Below, in pieces: positions 1 through 7,571 of a stretch of DNA of 7,571 bases. Each line of letters opens with the position of its first letter. Position 1 is the first letter of the stretch. This stretch comes from a virus. Lineage: Duplodnaviria > Heunggongvirae > Uroviricota > Caudoviricetes. Position numbers and translations under genes: made by a program. The notes beneath the pieces are model-generated. The model was not told the origin of the DNA. It saw only the letters and a list, made by a program, of their open reading frames with translations, and made no database searches. The stretch is taken from positions 1 to 7,571 of IMG/VR virus record IMGVR_UViG_2529293138_000004, one strand, 5' to 3'.

Positions 1-1230
1 ATGAGCAGAGCACTTAACAAACTGAGTGATACACAGCTAAGGAAAATCAACGGCACACCCGCCCAAAAAACAGCCTTTCTTAATGACGGTGGAAACCTGA
101 GCGTCAGGCATTCAACCAGCGGCCTTTTAACCTGGTATTTCACTTACAGGGCCGGAACGGGAAGGGGGGCACCACCGGAACGCATTAAGCTGGGAAATTA
201 TCCTGATCTGAGCCTGAAATCAGCCAGGGAAAAAGCCGCCCAGTGTCGCGCATGGCTGGCTGAGGGGAAAAATCCACGTCATGAGATGAATTACACCGTA
301 CAGGAAGCGTTAAAGCCGGTAACGGTTGGCGATGCGCTCACCTACTGGCTTGAGTCGTACGCAAAGGAAAACCGCGTGGATTATGCCGCCCTGAAAAAGC
401 GCCTTAATAATCACGTAATACAGCACATTGGTGCTATGCCGCTGGATAAATGCGAGCTACGGCACTGGCTGGCCTGTTTTGACCAGGTGGCAAAGCGAAC
501 GCCTGTTACTGCCGGATTCTTGCTACAGACGTGCAAACAGGCGCTTAAGTTCTGCCGGAGGCGGCGCTATGCAATCAGCAACGTTCTTGATGATATGAGT
601 GTGGCGGACGTTGGGAAAAAACCGGATATAAGCGAGCGTGTCTTAAGCACCAAAGAACTGGGCGAATTATTGCAGGCTCTGGACAAAAAAATATTCTCCC
701 CCTACTACATCGCGTTAATCCGCCTCCTGATTGTTTTCGGATGCCGGACGGTAGAACTGAGGTTATCGGAGATCAGCGAGTGGGATTTTACCGAAATGCT
801 CTGGACCGTGCCGAAAGAACACAGCAAAACGAAGGTGGCAATATTCCGGCCCATACCGGAAGCAATACTGCCGTTCGTCACGCAGCTGGTGGAGCAGAAC
901 AGGCACACGGGCTTATTGCTGGGGGAAGTGAAACAGGAAACAAGCGTGTCGCAGTACGGCAGATTAGCGCACAGGAGGCTAAAACACCCTCACTGGTCAC
1001 TGCATGACATCCGGCGCACCTTTACAACGATGCTGAACGATTTAGGCGTGGATCCTCACGTCGTGGAGCAGCTTACAGGTCATCAGATGCCAGGGATGCA
1101 ACGAGTCTATAACCATTCCCGTTATCTGGATGCGAAACGTGACGCGCTGGATATGTGGACGGAGCGGTTAGGGATACTGGCGGGAACACATGAAAACGTA
1201 ACTACCTTGCCAATAGCCAGAGAAATATAA
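1..1230 (+). CDS. int: Tyrosine recombinase / phage integrase, P4-like family (409 aa)
   Basis: ORF 1-1230. N-terminal arm-type DNA-binding region (LSDTQLR..DGGNL..WYFTYR..KLGNYPDLSLKSAREKA), catalytic box I Arg (FGCRTVEL), HDIRRTF (H-x-x-R) and C-terminal Tyr (RVYNHSRYLD). The window starts exactly at the ATG, so the true 5' end and the attachment site upstream cannot be verified. Confidence 0.9.
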   Translation: MSRALNKLSDTQLRKINGTPAQKTAFLNDGGNLSVRHSTSGLLTWYFTYRAGTGRGAPPERIKLGNYPDLSLKSAREKAAQCRAWLAEGKNPRHEMNYTVQEALKPVTVGDALTYWLESYAKENRVDYAALKKRLNNHVIQHIGAMPLDKCELRHWLACFDQVAKRTPVTAGFLLQTCKQALKFCRRRRYAISNVLDDMSVADVGKKPDISERVLSTKELGELLQALDKKIFSPYYIALIRLLIVFGCRTVELRLSEISEWDFTEMLWTVPKEHSKTKVAIFRPIPEAILPFVTQLVEQNRHTGLLLGEVKQETSVSQYGRLAHRRLKHPHWSLHDIRRTFTTMLNDLGVDPHVVEQLTGHQMPGMQRVYNHSRYLDAKRDALDMWTERLGILAGTHENVTTLPIAREI

Positions 1231-1590
1231 TTTTTTTTGCGATTTTTCAGGATGCGGACAACGTGAAACAACTAGACACAACGACGAACAACAAGGAACA
1301 AAATGGAACAACGGGTTAAAAATTAGCCATCGTGATAACCATTTGATTTTTATAGGTGTACTGTTTTTTTATACACTGGCGAATCACTCTTAAAAATATG
1401 TAAAAAAGGCGTAAAAGTAAAATTTTATGCCTTTGCATCATAATGAATTAAAAGAGTTTTTATTCTCATTCCCCCTGCTTCTGTAAAACGACCTCCGCCA
1501 GTGTTTGCCATTCCACAAACACCCTGACACAATCAGACACAACCCAATAATCCACCCAATGACTCTTTAATAAACAACAAAGGGGGAATT
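1231..1590 (+). promoter_or_regulatory. AT-rich int-alpA intergenic region with phased A/C-rich direct repeats; presumed alpA promoter/operator region
   Basis: GGAACAA at 1295-1301 and 1305-1311; GACACAA at 1275-1281, 1526-1532 and 1536-1542 (two pairs phased at 10 bp); AT-rich stretch 1380-1460 with -10-like hexamers. No promoter position could be fixed confidently. Confidence 0.3.
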
Positions 1591-1779
1591 GTGTTAAGCA
1601 CAGATCGCTTTATACGTGAAAAAGAATGTCAGCAACTTACAGGCCTGAGCCGCTCATGTCGGTACCGCCTGGAAAAAGCCGGACAATTTCCATCACGGCG
1701 TAAGCTCGGCGGTCGTTCCGTTGGCTGGTCTTTATCCGAAGTTCTGGCATGGAAGGACAGCTGCGAGGCAGTTCACTAA
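1591..1779 (+). CDS. alpA: AlpA/Vis-family prophage transcriptional regulator (62 aa, GTG start)
   Basis: GTG at 1591 preceded by AGGGGGAA Shine-Dalgarno (1581-1588). Helix-turn-helix signature LTGLSRSCRYRLEKAGQFP..KLGGRSVGWSLSEVLAW is typical of AlpA-type regulators found next to P4-like integrases. Confidence 0.85.
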   Translation: MLSTDRFIREKECQQLTGLSRSCRYRLEKAGQFPSRRKLGGRSVGWSLSEVLAWKDSCEAVH

Positions 1780-1785
1780 TCAGGC

Positions 1786-1804
1786 TGGCGGCACACAGCC
1801 GCCA
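1786..1804 (+). other. GC-rich hairpin (7-bp stem TGGCGGC/GCCGCCA, 5-nt loop) just after alpA; no U-tract
   Basis: Perfect inverted repeat 1786-1792 / 1798-1804; the following sequence is not T-rich, so it is not a canonical intrinsic terminator. Confidence 0.3.
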
Positions 1805-1831
1805 CCCATCCACTAATACAGAGATCTAACC

Positions 1832-2131
1832 ATGAATACTGGATATTCTCCCGAACAAGGGCGGGGCTTCGTTCGTCCTGAAAAACAGAATCTGCAAAAT
1901 TTTGCCGAAATTATTCCGGTTATTTCCGGCCTTACTGGCGGGAGTGAAACCAATATTGTTAACGACAGAGCGTTGCAGATGTTTGATGATAAAAAGGGAG
2001 TAAATTTAACTTACACCCCTGACGGCAATCAGAATATGAGCATTATCTCTGAGTCAGGTTTCTACAAACTAATAAAAACAAAAAGCGCCCCGTTGCCGGA
2101 GCGCCTTTGTGAACAATTAACCTGCTGCACA
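1832..2131 (+). pseudogene. BRO-N domain-like ORF (antirepressor-associated N-terminal domain); no in-frame stop until 3232, likely frameshifted or degraded
   Basis: Residues ~20-95 (NIVNDRALQMFDDKKGVNL..GNQNMSIISESGFYKLIKTKSAPLPERL) match the BRO-N pattern (..LDDDEKG....MTVINESGLYSLILRSRKPEAKKF..). Downstream the same frame becomes Cys/Ser-rich low-quality sequence antisense to a better small gene. An A8 tract at 2201-2208 lies inside the ORF; removing one A would terminate at TGA 2232-2234. Confidence 0.4.
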
Positions 2132-2319
2132 AAAAATAAATATGAGCAGTGGGATTATATCATCCAGGTGACGAAGCGCCACAATTGCCGGATAACAGGC
2201 AAAAAAAAGGCGACCGCAAAATGGTCGCCAGTGAGAACAAAGGAAATCAAACGCGTCACCAACAATGCCACATTTGCGGCTGGTGGGCAATGTGATCAGT
2301 GTGCTGGCTTGCTGGTGGG

Positions 2320-2499
2320 CTATTCCTGTTCTTTGGCCTTGCGACGCTGGCGGCGTTTGATCTCGCCTTTTGCGGCAGTAACTAAAAAACCAGCGGTACT
2401 TTCGCCAGGTTCTTTAAGTTGCTCAATATCATCCATTACTTCATGTGGGATTCTGACAGTTGTCATTTGTGATTTTGCGTTCTTTGCACCAGTTGCCAT
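2320..2499 (-). CDS. Small ribbon-helix-helix (Arc/CopG-like) putative DNA-binding protein, 59 aa
   Basis: Minus-strand ATG (complement of 2497-2499) preceded by AGGAG at 8-nt spacing; product MATGAKNAKSQMTTVRIPHEVMDDIEQLKEPGESTAGFLVTAAKGEIKRRQRRKAKEQE has an RHH-like beta-strand (TVRIP) followed by two helices. The longer track ORF (to 2667) adds a non-protein-like extension. Confidence 0.5.
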   Translation of the reverse strand: MATGAKNAKSQMTTVRIPHEVMDDIEQLKEPGESTAGFLVTAAKGEIKRRQRRKAKEQE

Positions 2500-2566
2500 T
2501 TCTGGATCTCCTAAAAATTGGTGTATGCCAGTATACGCAAAAAAAATGATAAAAAAAGGCTTGAAG

Positions 2567-2611
2567 TGTATTTCACCAGTGAGTAAATTAAAAAGCAAAG
2601 GTGAAATACAC
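2567..2611. promoter_or_regulatory. Perfect 12-bp inverted repeat GTGTATTTCACC / GGTGAAATACAC with 21-bp spacer; candidate operator upstream of the RHH gene
   Basis: Arms at 2567-2578 and 2600-2611; a third GTGTAT half-site at 2521-2526; a -10-like TATACT on the minus strand (complement of 2527-2532) between the repeat and the RHH start. Confidence 0.4.
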
Positions 2612-2764
2612 CTAAAAGAGCAACGCCCCGCAGTGCTCGCAACACATGCAGGGCGTCTAACCACCAACGATAGAAAGAGTATCGAGGTAGCTATGAGAAA
2701 TCATACCACACACCCGCAAGGGCGGGACTCGCACAACCTGAATAAAGCGGGTATGAAAAACCTG

Positions 2765-2794
2765 TTGATCGCCACTGCCAGCCAGGGCTATGAT
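2765..2794 (+). promoter_or_regulatory. Candidate sigma70 promoter (TTGATC-N18-TATGAT) facing the icd-like region
   Basis: -35-like TTGATC 2765-2770, 18-nt spacer, -10-like TATGAT 2789-2794. Sequence match only. Confidence 0.3.
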
Positions 2795-2856
2795 TCATGT
2801 GCACCTCATAAAACGGGTGCCGGGATTACCACCCCGCTGATGTCCAGGGCGATACA

Positions 2857-2878
2857 GACGCCGCACGCGTCTTTTTTT
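2857..2878 (+). terminator. Intrinsic terminator-like hairpin (GACGC-cgcac-GCGTC) followed by T7
   Basis: Stem 2857-2861 / 2867-2871, then TTTTTTT 2872-2878. It sits in the leader between the candidate promoter and the structured RNA/icd region. Confidence 0.5.
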
Positions 2879-2907
2879 GTATCGGCGCACACGCACACCT
2901 TAACAAT

Positions 2908-2987
2908 GGTGGGCTGTACGGGGCCGACTTCGGTCGGGCTGGTCACCTTGGACGCCAGTTGTGGTAACCCTGTACAGTCCACCGCCA
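2908..2987 (+). ncRNA. Candidate tRNA-like structured RNA (P1 c4 / P4 CI antisense-RNA-like) immediately upstream of the first Icd-like ORF
   Basis: 12-bp closing stem 2908-2919 (GGTGGGCTGTAC) with 2972-2983 (GTACAGTCCACC, one G-U) followed by GCCA (2984-2987), enclosing a cUUCGg tetraloop hairpin (2924-2937) and a second hairpin (2941-2969). Structure is by eye, not computed. Confidence 0.3.
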
Positions 2988-3043
2988 GCGAGCTTACCAC
3001 CTCCGGCGGTGGGGATATCCCAACGTCTAAGGAGGCTGCCAAC

Positions 3044-3232
3044 ATGGCTACTACGCCTACCCTTATACATTCTCAAACTGCCTTTATCTGGCGCTTTATC
3101 ATCTTTGGCGCGTCAGAATCCCAAATCATCCACGTCACCGCCTGGACAGAACGCGAAGCGCGTAACCATTGCCCGTCCGGTTGTGTCGCTGTATTCGCCG
3201 CCCGTATTCGTCAGGGGTCACATCATGCTTAA
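3044..3232 (+). CDS. Icd-like small protein (host cell-division-inhibitor Icd / Ash-family-like), copy A, 62 aa
   Basis: ATG 3044 preceded by AAGGAGG (3029-3035). Product MATTPTLIHSQTAFIWRF...TEREARNH...VFAARIRQGSHHA, with the W-R-F ... TERE ... FAARIR pattern recalled for Icd-like proteins of P4-type elements. A longer in-frame annotation (from ATG 2906) is possible, but the strong internal SD favours the short form. Confidence 0.65.
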   Translation: MATTPTLIHSQTAFIWRFIIFGASESQIIHVTAWTEREARNHCPSGCVAVFAARIRQGSHHA

Positions 3233-3518
3233 AAACCGCTTGCAAAAAATTATCACGGGGCTGTATGCTTCCCCCGTCGCCCACATGGCGACCGGGTTTG
3301 ACAGCCTGAATAACATAGCGGACAGCCGCTTATATTCCGATATGCGGTTTTTTTGTGTCCGTAAACCTACCCATACCCGCATTATGGCGGGGCGTAACGG
3401 GGGAGCCTTTGCGCTCGCTGGTTTCTATGTTGCCAGTCTGTCAACCCTGTTACGTCTCGCCACCATGTTTGACAGCGTAGTAGCGAGACTCCTTACATCA
3501 AACATAGGAGCCTTTCAC

Positions 3519-3689
3519 ATGGCTGTATCCGCACGCCCTTACTTTGTCTGGCGCTTTATGCAGTGCCAGGAAAAACAAACCTCACTCTTTACCGTCACGG
3601 CAACAACAGAACGCGAAGCCCGCGCCCAGTTGCCGTACGCCCATCTGATTTTCGCCGCCCGTATTCGTCAGGAGGTGTGCCATGATTAA
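3519..3689 (+). CDS. Icd-like small protein, copy B (paralog of 3044-3232), 56 aa
   Basis: ATG 3519 preceded by AGGAG (3506-3510). Product MAVSARPYFVWRF...TEREARAQ...IFAARIRQEVCHD. Exact 22-bp repeat TTCGCCGCCCGTATTCGTCAGG at 3194-3215 and 3651-3672, and ACAGAACGCGAAGC shared with copy A. An in-frame upstream ATG at 3225 gives an alternative 154-aa form. Confidence 0.65.
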   Translation: MAVSARPYFVWRFMQCQEKQTSLFTVTATTEREARAQLPYAHLIFAARIRQEVCHD

Positions 3690-4038
3690 CCTGTCACTTA
3701 TCGACCTTAACCGCATCCAGTTTCGTGAGAAATTTACCTGGCAGCTACTGGTCAATGTAGAGAATGGACGCGTGGTAAGTAATTATCACCTGCCGGATGG
3801 TGCAATTGCCGGAAGCGTTGAAGCATTGCTGGAGCTGGCAGAACGTGCGCGACTGATTAAGCCGTTAACGTGCCATCACGATGATGATCTGCATTTTACC
3901 GGACGTATGATGAGCAATTATGAAAACGGCGTTGAAGCATCCCGCGAACGTCTGCATGATGATTACTGTTTCGGCACATTGCCGGAATTTATCGAATTGC
4001 TGACCAGTTGCGGTTATCAGGTCATTCAGGGGGGGTAA
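3682..4038 (+). CDS. Hypothetical protein, 118 aa
   Basis: ATG 3682 overlaps the icdB stop (ATGATTAA) and is preceded by AGGAGG (3671-3675), indicating translational coupling. Position after c4/icd matches the ant slot of P1 immI, but no motif was recognised. Confidence 0.75.
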   Translation: MINLSLIDLNRIQFREKFTWQLLVNVENGRVVSNYHLPDGAIAGSVEALLELAERARLIKPLTCHHDDDLHFTGRMMSNYENGVEASRERLHDDYCFGTLPEFIELLTSCGYQVIQGG

Positions 4039-4040
4039 AC

Positions 4041-4292
4041 ATGCGTGATGATCGTTTTAATTCCCTGAAACAGGAATTTTCCGGCGTGTCTTATGATGCG
4101 GGTGATGCGCTTTTATCAATATCTGAAATTATGCGGGTGGCTTTTTTCTTTCTTTGCACTGATGAGCACAGGGATACAGGACTAAATATTCTTGATATCG
4201 CCTCTGATTATGCTGATTACGTGGCTGAATTTAATTTAAGAGAAAAACAGTTATTACGCGAACAGAATAAAACGCCTTCCACCGGAGAATAA
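4041..4292 (+). CDS. Hypothetical protein, 83 aa
   Basis: ATG 4041 two nt after the upstream stop, preceded by a G-rich SD (4028-4035). The track's longer form starts at TTG 4008 inside the upstream gene and is less likely. Confidence 0.6.
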   Translation: MRDDRFNSLKQEFSGVSYDAGDALLSISEIMRVAFFFLCTDEHRDTGLNILDIASDYADYVAEFNLREKQLLREQNKTPSTGE

Positions 4293-4297
4293 AAATA

Positions 4298-4585
4298 ATG
4301 AAACTTAAATATTCTGGCTTAACTGCCAGCGGCACCGCTCGGCCTGAAATCCGTAACGGCGATATTTACCGCGATAAATATGGCGGCATGGTAACGATTA
4401 AAGGCGTGGCAGAACGGCGCATCACCTACCGCCGTGAAGGTTACGAATATGATTGCGTGATGCCTGTTTATCAATTCCGGCGTGATTTCACGCTGGTAGG
4501 CCATCGTAAAGCCGTTAATCAGAAACGTGCAACAGGTTATATCCGCAAAATCCGTGAAATGCTGGTCGCAGGGGGTAAGAAATGA
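4298..4585 (+). CDS. Hypothetical small protein, 95 aa (tentatively DUF4222-like: YRD and GxV motifs)
   Basis: ATG 4298 with GGAGA upstream; contains IYRDKYGGMVTIKGV. The family assignment is from memory and is low-certainty. Confidence 0.7.
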   Translation: MKLKYSGLTASGTARPEIRNGDIYRDKYGGMVTIKGVAERRITYRREGYEYDCVMPVYQFRRDFTLVGHRKAVNQKRATGYIRKIREMLVAGGKK

Positions 4586-5979
4586 AACTGGCACCGAACG
4601 TAAAACGATTACCGAAAGATAAATACACCGATGCGATTATTTTTGCGGGTATTGATGCTCACTCATTCGCAGAGCATTACATCATTGCACAGGCCAAAAA
4701 AGCAGGCGATCCAGTCCCTCCCGTTTATCTGGGGCGTTATCAGTTAAGCGAACTGGATAACCTCCAGATTGTTGATGATGGGCGATACAGGGCGACGGTG
4801 ATACGCGCCGGAAATATTGAAGAGCCGCAGCTGTTAACCATCGCCACGAAACTGGCGATCGCCGGAGTCCAGGAGGCGCGGCTACTTTCTGAAAATTTCG
4901 AATTGCTGGAGGAATGGAGCGACCAGCTTCCACGGCTTAGGGAGACATGGGAACGCGGGGAAAGCCTGAGCAACCAGCGAAAAACCACGCTACCAATGAG
5001 CGTGGGATCTGCCGGATACGACACACAACTTGATTACGTGGTTAAGGGAATTATTCCGGCTGTATCGCTTTGCAGCATATACGGGGCGAGCGGTTCCTAT
5101 AAATCATTCCTTGCCGGATCGTGGGCGTGTCACGTTTCCACTGGCCGCCAGTGGGGATGCCGCAGGGTGGCGCATGGCGCTGTTCTCTATGTGGTTGGTG
5201 AAGGCGGTATCGGCGTTCCTCGTCGTGTAAAAGCCTGGGAGGTTGTGCACGGTGAGCAGGTGAAAAATCTGTATCTGGTAAACCGTCCCATCTTTCCGGC
5301 TGCCCCGCTTGATGTTGATGAAATGGTTATCGCTGCCCGTCAGGTGGAACGGGAAACGGGTAAACCTGTACGCATGATTATTCTGGATACGCTGGCGCGG
5401 TGCTTTGGTGGCAATGATGAAAATGATTCCCGTGATATGGGGGCGTTTATCCGTGGGTGTGACGAACTGAAACGACGCACAGGGGCCACGGTGCTGGTGG
5501 TTCACCATTCCGGCAAGGATGAAACAAAGGGAGCGCGTGGTTCCAGTGCATTTCGTGCTTCGCTGGATGCTGAATACCGGATACGCAGGGAGGACGCAGG
5601 AAGCGAAGCCCTGGTTATCTCATGCACCAAAATGAAGGATGCGGAGGAACTCAAAGAAGCCGCATATGACTTACGCGTGGTGGAGCTTTTTACCGACGCT
5701 GACGGGGAGTTAATCACGTCGCTGGTGGTGGTGGATAAGCCGCGCCCTCCCGTTGAACTGGAGCGCATCGAGGAGGCTGGCAACAAGACGGAAAACCATA
5801 CCGCGCTATGGGGATGCATACGTTCACGCACACAGAACGGCGACAAGTGCACGATCCCGCTGTTACGTGATGACATGAAAAAACTGGGGTACGAAATGAA
5901 AAACTTCCGGCGCTGGCTGTACAAGCTGGAAAAAGACAGGGTTATTCGTATCGATGGGGATGATGTAGCGCCGCTATAA
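4582..5979 (+). CDS. RecA-fold replicative ATPase/helicase-like protein (AAA_25 / RepA-like), 465 aa
   Basis: ATG 4582 overlaps the upstream stop (ATGA). P-loop region IYGASGSYKSFLAG, Walker B/sensor region MIILDTLARCFGGNDENDSRDMGAFIRGCDELKRRTGATVLVVHHSGKD, matching the pattern of AAA_25 family replication helicases. N-terminal ~150 aa unassigned; no primase domain evident. Confidence 0.85.
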   Translation: MKLAPNVKRLPKDKYTDAIIFAGIDAHSFAEHYIIAQAKKAGDPVPPVYLGRYQLSELDNLQIVDDGRYRATVIRAGNIEEPQLLTIATKLAIAGVQEARLLSENFELLEEWSDQLPRLRETWERGESLSNQRKTTLPMSVGSAGYDTQLDYVVKGIIPAVSLCSIYGASGSYKSFLAGSWACHVSTGRQWGCRRVAHGAVLYVVGEGGIGVPRRVKAWEVVHGEQVKNLYLVNRPIFPAAPLDVDEMVIAARQVERETGKPVRMIILDTLARCFGGNDENDSRDMGAFIRGCDELKRRTGATVLVVHHSGKDETKGARGSSAFRASLDAEYRIRREDAGSEALVISCTKMKDAEELKEAAYDLRVVELFTDADGELITSLVVVDKPRPPVELERIEEAGNKTENHTALWGCIRSRTQNGDKCTIPLLRDDMKKLGYEMKNFRRWLYKLEKDRVIRIDGDDVAPL

Positions 5980-6156
5980 AGTGAGGTGCAAAAGCGAGGT
6001 GTATAGAAGGAGGGCCAAAATTAGACCGCTACCCCTCACTTTTCGGCCTGTATACATCCTCAAAAGTGAGGGGCAAAAAAATACTTATGAAACACACACA
6101 TAGAAAAAGCGAAAATCTCAAGCGAGACGGAGCCAGACACTTTAAAAAGTGAGGCG
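5978..6156. repeat. Iteron array AAAG(T/C)GAGG(T/G)G (direct and inverted copies) with an AT-rich stretch; candidate replication origin
   Basis: Copies at 5978-5988, 5991-6001, 6062-6073, 6144-6156, inverted copy 6032-6043 (forming a 12-bp inverted repeat with 6062-6073), and degenerate copies at 6104-6115 and 6119-6130. Lies directly downstream of the replication ATPase gene. Confidence 0.5.
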
Positions 6157-6178
6157 AAAAACTGAGAGTTTGCGAGAA

Positions 6179-6430
6179 ATGAACAAAATGCGTAGAGACA
6201 GAACAGAGCCAAAATATAAAGCGTTAGACATGACAGAGCACGCTTTAAAGGTGGCAATCAGAACGATAGACCGCCACGCGGGGGAAGGATACGCGAAGGA
6301 ACATCCCGACATGATAAGCGCATTCATGACCACAGCAGCGGCAAACTTTGCCACGCTGACAGAACGGGAGATTGCCGAAGCGGAACAGGTAACAACCATC
6401 AACGTTAAAACCGGAGAGCAGACAGCATGA
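6179..6430 (+). CDS. Hypothetical protein (~83 aa; start ambiguous among GTG 6149, ATG 6179, 6188, 6230)
   Basis: ORF ends with a TGA overlapping the ATG of the SSB gene (ATGA at 6427-6430), suggesting coupling; no recognisable motif and weak SD candidates. Confidence 0.5.
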   Translation: MNKMRRDRTEPKYKALDMTEHALKVAIRTIDRHAGEGYAKEHPDMISAFMTTAAANFATLTEREIAEAEQVTTINVKTGEQTA

Positions 6431-6933
6431 CAGCACAGATAGCGGCTTACGGACGGCTGGTGGCTGACCCGCAGTTAAAGACCACCAGCAAGGGTACACA
6501 AATGACGATGGCGAGTATGGCGGTCCCCCTTCCGTGCAGCCAGGCAGATGACGGAGCGGCGACGATGTGGTTATCCGTCATGGCGTTTGGCAGACAGGCC
6601 GACGCACTGGCAAAACACCACAAAGGCGAACTGGTGAGCGTGGCGGGTAACATGCAGGTAAGTCAGTGGACAGGCCAGAACGGCGAAACGCGGCAGGGCT
6701 GGCAGGTTATCGCAGACAGCATAATCAGTGCGAGAACGGCGCGACCTGGCGGCAAAAAAGGCCAGCAGGGGCAGGCTACTGATGCACTGAACAGGGCAAA
6801 ACAACAGGCGGGTAACGATGATCCGTACGGGATAACATACCGTTTTAAGCAACGAGTAACAGAAGCCGGAGAAGTCCGGCTTTTTTATGCCCCAAAAAAA
6901 GCCCGGAGGGTCTTATCGGGCTTTTGCATATGA
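6427..6933 (+). CDS. ssb: Single-stranded DNA-binding protein (SSB-like OB fold), 168 aa with atypical C-terminus
   Basis: GGAGAG SD at 6414-6419. The pattern IAAYGRLVADPQLKTT..MWLSVMAFGRQADALAKHHKGELVSVAGNMQVSQWTGQNGETRQGWQVIADSI parallels E. coli SSB ([66 protein letters not shown]). The C-terminal ~25 codons read through two terminator-like hairpins. Confidence 0.8.
   Translation: MTAQIAAYGRLVADPQLKTTSKGTQMTMASMAVPLPCSQADDGAATMWLSVMAFGRQADALAKHHKGELVSVAGNMQVSQWTGQNGETRQGWQVIADSIISARTARPGGKKGQQGQATDALNRAKQQAGNDDPYGITYRFKQRVTEAGEVRLFYAPKKARRVLSGFCI
6865..6886 (+). terminator. Intrinsic terminator (GCCGGA-gaag-TCCGGC followed by T6)
   Basis: Stem 6865-6870 / 6875-6880, loop 6871-6874, T-tract 6881-6886; located inside the 3' end of the SSB ORF as currently delimited. 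Confidence 0.6.
6898..6924. terminator. Second hairpin (AAAGCCCG...CGGGCTTT) flanked by an A-tract and a T-tract; possible bidirectional terminator
   Basis: Stem 6898-6905 / 6917-6924 with an 11-nt loop; A7 upstream would provide a U-tract for minus-strand transcripts. Confidence 0.35.
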
Positions 6934-7003
6934 GGTTTTTTTGGTGCGCTGACACACATGATCGGGATAATAATTTCATAATTTGCAACATAACTCAATA
7001 TTA

Positions 7004-7052
7004 TTGCACAAAATGCAATCATGATTATAATCATGACTGGATGAACATCCAG
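7004..7052 (+). promoter_or_regulatory. Consensus-like sigma70 promoter (TTGCAC-N16-TATAAT) with overlapping palindromic operators
   Basis: -35 at 7004-7009; perfect -10 TATAAT at 7026-7031 sitting at the centre of a perfect 18-bp palindrome TCATGATTATAATCATGA (7019-7036); a second inverted repeat CTGGATG-aa-CATCCAG at 7037-7052 around the expected transcription start. Confidence 0.5.
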
Positions 7053-7087
7053 TTATGATTTTTTAAGTCGAAGAGGAATTTCTTACT

Positions 7088-7270
7088 ATGGCTGAAGAGA
7101 AAAAAGGCGGTGTTTCGGTGTACATAAGCTCCGACATCGTGGAGGCGCTCAAGGAACGCCACCAGCAGAACGTAAAGCAGGCATTGCGGCAGGACTTGAT
7201 CCACTGGCGATGGTTGAGCCGTCAACAGGCTGGCAGGTGCGCGCCTATTTACGTGCGGCGCTGGGCATGA
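7088..7270 (+). CDS. Small protein upstream of the capsid gene (60 aa as an intact ORF; possible frameshifted ~68-aa product ending at 7293)
   Basis: ATG 7088 with GAGG upstream. The N-terminal half uses preferred codons in this frame; from about 7170 the other forward frame (ending TAA 7291-7293, abutting the capsid ATG) uses preferred codons (AGIAAGLDPLAMVEPSTGWQVRAYLRAALGMNQTHGGE), while the original frame turns Arg/Trp-rich. Confidence 0.4.
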   Translation: MAEEKKGGVSVYISSDIVEALKERHQQNVKQALRQDLIHWRWLSRQQAGRCAPIYVRRWA

Positions 7271-7293
7271 ATCAGACTCATGGGGGTGAATAA

Positions 7294-7571
7294 TGGCAGG
7301 CAAAGCAACGGCACTTACCACTAATCAGCTTTTCACGTACATGAATCGCGGGGATATTGCGGAATTTAAATTCAGTCCGCTGTTTACCACGCTGTTTTTC
7401 CCGAACGTGGCGACATTCAGCACCCAAAACATCATGCTGGATACCCTGGACATTGAAGAAGTCACTATGTCGGCGTTTTGTTCGCCTATGGTTGGCAGCC
7501 AGGTACAGCGCGATAAAGGGTACGAAACCAGCACAATCAAACCTGGCTACATGAAGCCAAAGCACGAAATC
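7294..7571 (+). CDS. Major capsid protein, lambda gpE family (N-terminal 92 codons; truncated by window end)
   Basis: ATG 7294 preceded by GGGGG (7282-7286). Translation MAGKATALTTNQLFTYMNRGDIAEFKFSPLFTTLFFPNVATFSTQNIMLDTLDIEEVTMSAFCSPMVGSQVQRDKGYETSTIKPGYMKPKHEI parallels lambda E (..FKFDPLFLRLFF..VNMALYVSPIVSGEVIRSRGGSTSEFTPGYVKPKHEV). Not in the supplied ORF track because it has no stop within the window. Confidence 0.85.

Follow-up and report, generated by a model that had tools for sequence, protein, structure and literature searches.

The small gene in front of the capsid homologue gene of the analyzed stretch of DNA (7,571 nucleotides, called the window throughout) was found to be split between two reading frames by the lack of a single A. 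Judging from the alignments, the true gene is the 68-aa form and the window copy lost one base, because the relatives carry the gene in a single frame, this frame is under selection, and the tail frame of the 60-aa ORF left in the window contains stops in homologues. We infer from the sequence comparisons that the missing A is quite probably due to 454 sequencing, as a homopolymer under-called at a contig end that a repeat induced. The organism itself most probably does not have the frameshift.

Two Reading Frames in the Small Gene

In the window the small gene covers 206 nt (7088-7293). The frame opened by ATG 7088 is coding to about 7176 and runs on in translation to TGA 7268-7270, giving an ORF of 60 aa which matches RefSeq entry WP_024210833.1 at 100% in sequence. 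From 7177 onward the -1 frame is the coding one. Starting at 7090, this frame is free of stops from 7096 up to TAA 7291-7293; its translation up to the stop reads ...AGIAAGLDPLAMVEPSTGWQVRAYLRAALGMNQTHGGE, the same product being also written as ...KAGIAAGLDPLAMVEPSTGWQVRAYLRAALGMNQTHGGE. The following features of the region were used:

7071..7077, plus strand: Shine-Dalgarno-like AAGAGGA, 10 nt 5' of ATG 7088, read directly from the sequence
7088..7293, plus strand: small gene, disrupted by a 1-base deletion; 206 nt versus 207 nt (68 aa) in relatives
7088..7270, plus strand: 60-aa ORF as it stands, corresponding to WP_024210833.1
7174..7176, plus strand: AAA run, AAAA in relatives; site of the missing base from the alignment with relatives
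7177..7293, plus strand: conserved segment coding for the C-terminus (38 codons and TAA), read in the -1 frame with respect to ATG 7088
7282..7289, plus strand: Shine-Dalgarno site GGGGGTGA of the capsid gene, inside the last codons (G-G-E) of the small gene
7293..7571, plus strand: 5' part (93 codons) of a lambda-E-like major capsid homologue, assigned by Pfam Phage_cap_E and cut by the contig end

The original prediction, made from the sequence alone, had proposed an apparent frameshift in the small gene before the capsid gene, with a 60-aa ORF coding only in its first half and a change of frame at about 7170. The translations and the alignment with the 68-aa relatives bear this out. Residues 1-30 of the 60-aa ORF are native, residues 31-60 (QALRQDLIHWRWLSRQQAGRCAPIYVRRWA) are out of frame and not conserved, and the base is missing from the A run at 7174-7176, with AAC GTA AAG CAG as the sequence of the frame junction. 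A single uninterrupted ORF of about 68 codons is absent from the window as it stands; one added A restores it. With this A the halves join to MAEEKKGGVSVYISSDIVEALKERHQQNVKAGIAAGLDPLAMVEPSTGWQVRAYLRAALGMNQTHGGE, which agrees residue for residue with a 68-aa family protein found in many genomes and is 99% identical to family member P0001. The second frame does end at TAA 7291-7293 as predicted, and its stop shares a base with the capsid ATG (7293-7295) in TAATG (7291-7295).

Both ribosome-binding sites are shared with relatives. AAGAGGA upstream of the small gene is kept in CFT073, ST130, and CH10508. The capsid-gene site is retained as GG(G/A)GGTGAATAA in 7 of 8 sequences, Salmonella and Pluralibacter included, with GGAGCGGAATAA in L008; part of the conservation of the small-gene C-terminus is therefore explained by its last codons forming this site. 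A 96-aa ORF with GTG start on the minus strand (7031-7321), antisense to the small gene, was rejected as a gene. It is not open in any relative and is specific for the window, since the deletion fuses two frames there.

An EcCICFT073-Type Satellite as Genomic Context

The element is an EcCICFT073-type Gram-negative phage-inducible chromosomal island (PICI), a phage satellite of E. coli. The window encodes, in this order, a tyrosine integrase (1-1230), an alpA-type gene, DUF4222, an AAA_25/RepA helicase (4582-5979), a single-stranded DNA-binding protein (SSB, from 6427), the small gene, and the capsid homologue, with Pfam matches for integrase, DUF4222, AAA_25 helicase, SSB, and Phage_cap_E. 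This corresponds to the EcCICFT073-type layout of int, alpA, replication module, and capsid-homologue operon, all in one direction and adjoining roxA. Window positions 6900-7571 match 598 of 5426 complete E. coli genomes at 80-96% identity, CFT073 among them at 94.2%. The matching CFT073 locus is EcCICFT073, inserted next to roxA, where the RefSeq annotation lists a 207-nt gene for a hypothetical protein (WP_000796960.1, C_RS07005) ending exactly at the capsid start, and a head decoration gene after the capsid gene. Capsid and decoration homologues of this island are c1499 and c1500, and neither transfer nor interference was affected by the deletion of one or the other (PMC6092414); rppA, the gene for interference, is c1503 (PMC6739421).

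Several further observations were made on gene content. Comparing window 6934-7087 with L001 7680-7928, a PerC-family regulator gene was found absent from the window subtype; in the CFT073 and O157 islands it is located between SSB and small gene. The 466-aa ORF at 1832-3232 matches Phage_ASH only at residues 324-413 and is probably over-extended. For the 100% identical DNA of L020 and L021, two other assemblies with the same island, gene calling yields an Ash-family protein of 179 aa (window 2693-3232); a gene for 59 aa on the other strand is also present in L021 and in L019, which is slightly diverged. Among the Pluralibacter gergoviae records the capsid homologue (L005/L006, 6207-7260) is split into 179 + 170 aa in L006, uncalled in L005, and intact with 350 aa in L007. 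The split and uncalled forms would be due to a pseudogene or to misassembly of these records.

Relatives Keep a Single 68-Codon Frame

Homologous loci were aligned in order to see which frame is conserved, as had been proposed, and a single 68-aa frame was found throughout. The alignment with CFT073 and ST130 contains a single gap, GT-AAAA-GC in the relatives versus GT-AAA-GC in the window (7174-7176), and both of these loci translate to an uninterrupted 68-aa ORF. The intact ORF of 207 nt and 68 aa was present in every relative examined (EcCICFT073-type E. coli satellites, Salmonella, Pluralibacter, and 58 viral or metagenome contigs), and the RefSeq annotation of each complete genome inspected has a gene of 207 nt bordering on the capsid gene. 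Distant copies with 57-68% identity, from Salmonella, P. gergoviae, and two unassigned contigs, have a length of 68 or 69 aa, run in a single frame, and lie directly 5' of the Phage_cap_E gene, which is followed by the HDPD decoration gene. The layout with the small gene directly before Phage_cap_E, stop and start abutting or overlapping, is common to CFT073, ST130, O157, Salmonella, Pluralibacter, L008, and L010.

Using Nei-Gojobori estimates for the disputed half (codons 31-68 of the 68-aa frame), dN/dS values of 0.07-0.34 were obtained. Variable columns are distributed 24/22/37 over the three codon positions, third positions varying most, and synonymous sites are saturated between genera. 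These substitution patterns show purifying selection on the 68-aa frame over the half in question. Homologues that keep the 60-aa ORF under selection had been named as evidence against a frameshift; the opposite was found, the tail frame of this ORF carrying stops in the diverged homologues L008, L010, and L012. The repaired 68-aa form shares 94% protein identity with CFT073-type forms (P0009) and is matched by the PHROG 3255 profile over residues 1-68 (E = 1.3e-37), as are 13 of 13 aligned members by match to this family, while the unrepaired 60-aa ORF (P0028) matches the family only over residues 1-34.

The Form With Three A Residues Is Confined to the Source Contig

The 60-aa product WP_024210833.1 forms a singleton cluster, and intact 68-aa forms are recorded on >1000 contigs each. 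With a 91-nt query across the site, no gap-free match was seen among the 287 complete E. coli genomes matched; the best identity was 97.8% and every row listed spans one base more than the query. A pattern allowing A3 or A4 was found in 41 viral and 17 metagenome contigs carrying the allele of the window. All 58 have A4 with an intact ORF and none of the 58 has A3. Among the loci compared, A4 is present in 11 and A3 in the source contig only. Neither pattern was matched in a contig set with one genome per species, an uninformative result, presumably because the E. coli representative genome is without the allele. Sporadic frameshifted variants of the small-protein family do occur in databases (P0016, P0023, P0027, P0055, P0059).

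A separate observation concerns the O157:H7 allele (L012 1683-1889), which contains an A8 run (CACAAAAAAAACTAT) a few codons 5' of the site affected in the window. Two of the frameshifted database variants, P0055 and P0059, belong to the O157-type allele, so that the part of the small gene with A8 is a recurrent place for slippage or sequencing errors.

Differences Cluster at a Repeat-Induced Contig End

The window represents the last 7571 nt of contig AFDZ01000009.1 (assembly GCA_000225205.2); its end is the contig end, and the site of the missing A lies 398 nt from it. This contig was identified through the frameshifted 168-aa SSB product, after exact matching of the 60-aa product to the contig index had given no hit. 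The AFDZ assembly belongs to the bovine E. coli STEC isolate MHI813 of serotype O8:H19, for which 454 Titanium FLX was the only sequencing platform (3-kb paired-end libraries) and Celera v6.0 the assembler (PMC3491183).

The island in L020 and L021 is identical to the window over positions 1-6720. Over 7573 alignment columns 5 substitutions and 2 one-base gaps were counted, all near the contig end:

6721..7559, no strand: stretch with all 7 differences from L020/L021, within the last 851 nt before the contig end
6829..6831, plus strand: second homopolymer contraction, GGG where relatives have GGGG, in the SSB gene (6427-6933) close to its 3' end

Assuming that differences are spread evenly along the window, the probability of finding 7 of 7 in the last 851 nt is P = 2.3e-7. 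Both gaps are one-base contractions of four-base homopolymers, A4 to A3 in the small gene and G4 to G3 in the SSB gene. The two frame-breaking losses are 345 nt apart, with none in the other 6.7 kb, and no further frameshift was found elsewhere in the window by comparison with the near-identical L020 and L021. Other one-base indels, observed versus CH10508, CFT073, L016, and L017, are intergenic or located at mosaic junctions of diverged segments.

The G4 to G3 contraction shifts the SSB frame 6 codons before the normal stop. SSB relatives end with ...DDPYGDNIPF*, and the SSB of the window reads ...DDPYGITYRFKQ... instead, the ORF being extended from 140 aa in relatives to 168 aa and running through terminators. 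Bacterial SSBs interact with other proteins through this acidic ...IPF tip. As the DNIPF tip is removed, this frameshift would also be disabling.

The stretch with all differences lies inside a segment that is repeated in the same genome. MHI813 carries a second related island on contig AFDZ01000018.1 (L024), the right half of which is 99.2% identical to window 4280-7571. L024 has A4 and G4 at the two contraction sites and both genes are intact. Its position 10999, the end of AFDZ01000018.1, is the capsid position homologous to window 7571. That the two contigs stop at one and the same point of the capsid gene points to an assembly break caused by the repeat. Of the five substitutions in the window, three (7023, 7538, 7559) agree with the base of this second copy, which suggests mixed reads and not point mutation. 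The A at 6721 is a unique substitution, changing V to I in SSB.

Sequencing Error Versus Genuine Mutation

A one-base homopolymer under-call is the characteristic error of 454 sequencing, and such errors are most frequent in runs longer than four bases. The loss of two homopolymer bases 345 nt apart, against no such loss over the remaining 6.7 kb, fits this known error mode. We propose that the repeat broke both MHI813 contigs at the same capsid point, that the last few hundred bases would thus be a mixed, thinly supported consensus, and that under-calls of A4 and likewise of G4 most likely survived in this low-quality, repeat-bounded end of a Celera contig. Strain MHI813 would then carry an intact 68-aa gene, and neither recoding nor a pseudogene would be involved. 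Counting against an error, four-base runs are short for a consensus-level 454 error at normal coverage. The substitution at 6721 is atypical of 454, and some real divergence in the stretch is possible. Real mutations that inactivate one copy could be tolerated where a genome carries two similar islands.

The main alternative is a genuine recent mutation of MHI813, by which one of two co-resident islands would be starting to decay, with the small gene as a young pseudogene. The 68-aa protein and the C-terminal tip of SSB would both have been lost by replication slippage in short homopolymers. As L024 has both genes intact, selection on the window copy could be relaxed, and the unique substitution at 6721 is found in the same stretch as the deletions. 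Frameshifted family members do occur in the databases, and the capsid and decoration genes of EcCICFT073 show no deletion phenotype (PMC6092414), so the operon may be dispensable. Nevertheless, we consider such a mutation unlikely. All 7 differences fall within 851 nt of a contig end that a repeat induced, each of the indels shortens a homopolymer by one base in an assembly made from 454 reads alone, A3 was seen nowhere else in the genomes, clusters, and contigs searched, and 3 of 5 substitutions match the other copy, suggesting mixed reads. That both deletions are real and the satellite stands at the onset of decay, with the 68-aa protein perhaps made at low level by incidental slippage on A_AAG, appears quite unlikely.

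Programmed Recoding and the 60-aa ORF

As a further explanation, functional recoding was considered. A -1 shift at GUA-AAG, with tRNA-Lys slipping from AAG to AAA and GCA as the next codon, would yield the 68-aa protein. In E. coli the tetranucleotide A_AAG is known to be weakly slippery for -1 shifts, and a -1 slip on it at 7174-7177 would restore ...NVKAGIAAG... exactly. However, a programmed site would be conserved, and this split is unique to one contig: the two-frame arrangement was found in no homologue, all loci inspected being single-frame and 58 of 58 contigs with the allele having A4. There is no X XXY YYZ heptamer at the junction, only the tetranucleotide A_AAG; the absence of a classic slippery heptamer had been noted from the beginning. 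The RNA of 7165-7265 folds with -34.8 kcal/mol versus a shuffle mean of -36.1 (z = +0.41), and 120 of 200 shuffles fold at least as well. Functional recoding is thus extremely improbable and, as a programmed event, effectively excluded. If the deletion were real, slippage on A_AAG would be an incidental low-level leak and not a designed site. An indel, a sequencing error, or recoding had originally been offered side by side; single-frame homologues and the 454-only draft uphold the indel or error, while recoding falls with the unconserved arrangement, the missing heptamer, and the fold at z = +0.41.

The reading of the 60-aa ORF at 7088-7270 as the true gene, with a downstream frame seemingly coding by chance, can point to an intact ATG-to-stop frame with ribosome-binding site and to its annotation as WP_024210833.1 in RefSeq, but is of practically negligible probability and, as far as alignments can tell, already refuted, since residues 31-60 are not conserved, diverged homologues have stops in that frame, the alternative frame retains 57-68% identity between genera whose synonymous sites are saturated, and the 60-aa product is a singleton.

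With a sequencing error as the preferred explanation, the 60-aa WP_024210833.1 and the SSB of 168 aa on this contig are probably artefacts, for which annotation as 68-aa and 140-aa proteins is appropriate. Catalogues of frameshift sites should not list the apparent "recoding" at this locus.

The 68-aa Protein and Its Upstream DNA

The 68-aa protein is the tightly conserved, translationally linked first gene product of the EcCICFT073-type capsid-homologue operon. Searching PHROG with the repaired protein yielded only PHROG 3255, annotated as unknown function. A Pfam match to RHH_1 at residues 9-23 remained sub-threshold (E = 0.12, 12.8 bits versus a cut-off of 20.5), and four diverged homologues gave no RHH_1 match. 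A sequence profile search of the PDB with the 68-aa protein returned no match. A profile search of 1.84 billion representatives gave 17 matches, consisting of family members or fragments and a few long proteins with multiple stretches; none of the nine retrieved was linked to a family of known function. In the literature on the EcCICFT073 capsid region, no statement on the small gene was found.

A scaffold- or decoration-type partner of the capsid protein had been suggested from the gene position. This role found no support, as neither a decoration (lambda gpD/HDPD) nor a scaffold protein was matched by the small protein in Pfam or PHROG, and a separate HDPD gene is located downstream of the capsid gene in all relatives.

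An AlphaFold2 model built from 13 sequences (pLDDT 73) predicts a strand at 9-13 and helices at 15-34 and 47-58. Upstream of the gene the following element was found:

7029..7060, plus strand: hairpin (AATCATGACTGGATG / CATCCAGTTATGATT) followed by a T run, conserved in relatives

The hairpin has a stem of 15 bp followed by TTTTT and is located just 5' of the ribosome-binding site of the small gene. Palindromes overlapping one another are located at 7013-7042 (ATGCAATCATGATTA / TAATCATGACTGGAT), and hairpin and palindromes (window 7000-7060) are kept in CH10508 and ST130. The region 7000-7060 may be a candidate terminator, antitermination site, or operator for the capsid operon. The 68-aa protein could tentatively be seen as a putative small dimeric beta-alpha-alpha, ribbon-helix-helix (RHH)-like DNA-binding regulator whose targets would be the palindromes in front of the gene, although we regard this assignment as doubtful. 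The small protein and the conserved hairpin and palindromes are reasonable targets for studying how satellites switch the operon on, because the capsid operon is without known phenotype (PMC6092414). As a separate observation, a 9-nt indel polymorphism was noted in the terminator stem region at about 6906.

Comparison With Known Systems

Programmed -1 frameshifting, as in dnaX, the IS1/IS3 transposases, and the phage tail assembly chaperones G/GT, resembles the window in having two overlapping frames, which in the window one -1 slip on a lysine codon (A_AAG) would join. In contrast to these systems, the window has neither a heptamer nor a stimulatory structure, and its split occurs in one contig only; in true programmed cases the two-frame layout is conserved in homologues.

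Compared to the ribbon-helix-helix proteins (CopG/Arc/MetJ), the predicted order of strand, helix, and helix is similar, the N-terminal "GGVSVYISPDIVEALK" resembles the RHH strand and the start of the first helix, and palindromes lie upstream. The overall resemblance is weak.

False frameshifts made by 454 under-calls in draft genomes differ in that the runs of the window comprise only four bases and are shorter than the most error-prone runs. They are otherwise alike in the one-base contraction, the 454-only Celera assembly, the contig end, and the second event 345 nt away.

For EcCICFT073 the 68-aa protein (WP_000796960.1) is encoded, like that of the window, between the SSB/PerC region and the lambda-E-like capsid gene c1499, with which it shares the TAATG overlap. 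The window differs from the CFT073 island by a RepA-type helicase in place of the primase and by the missing PerC gene, and its copy of the small gene lacks one A, which leaves 60 aa with a nonsense tail.
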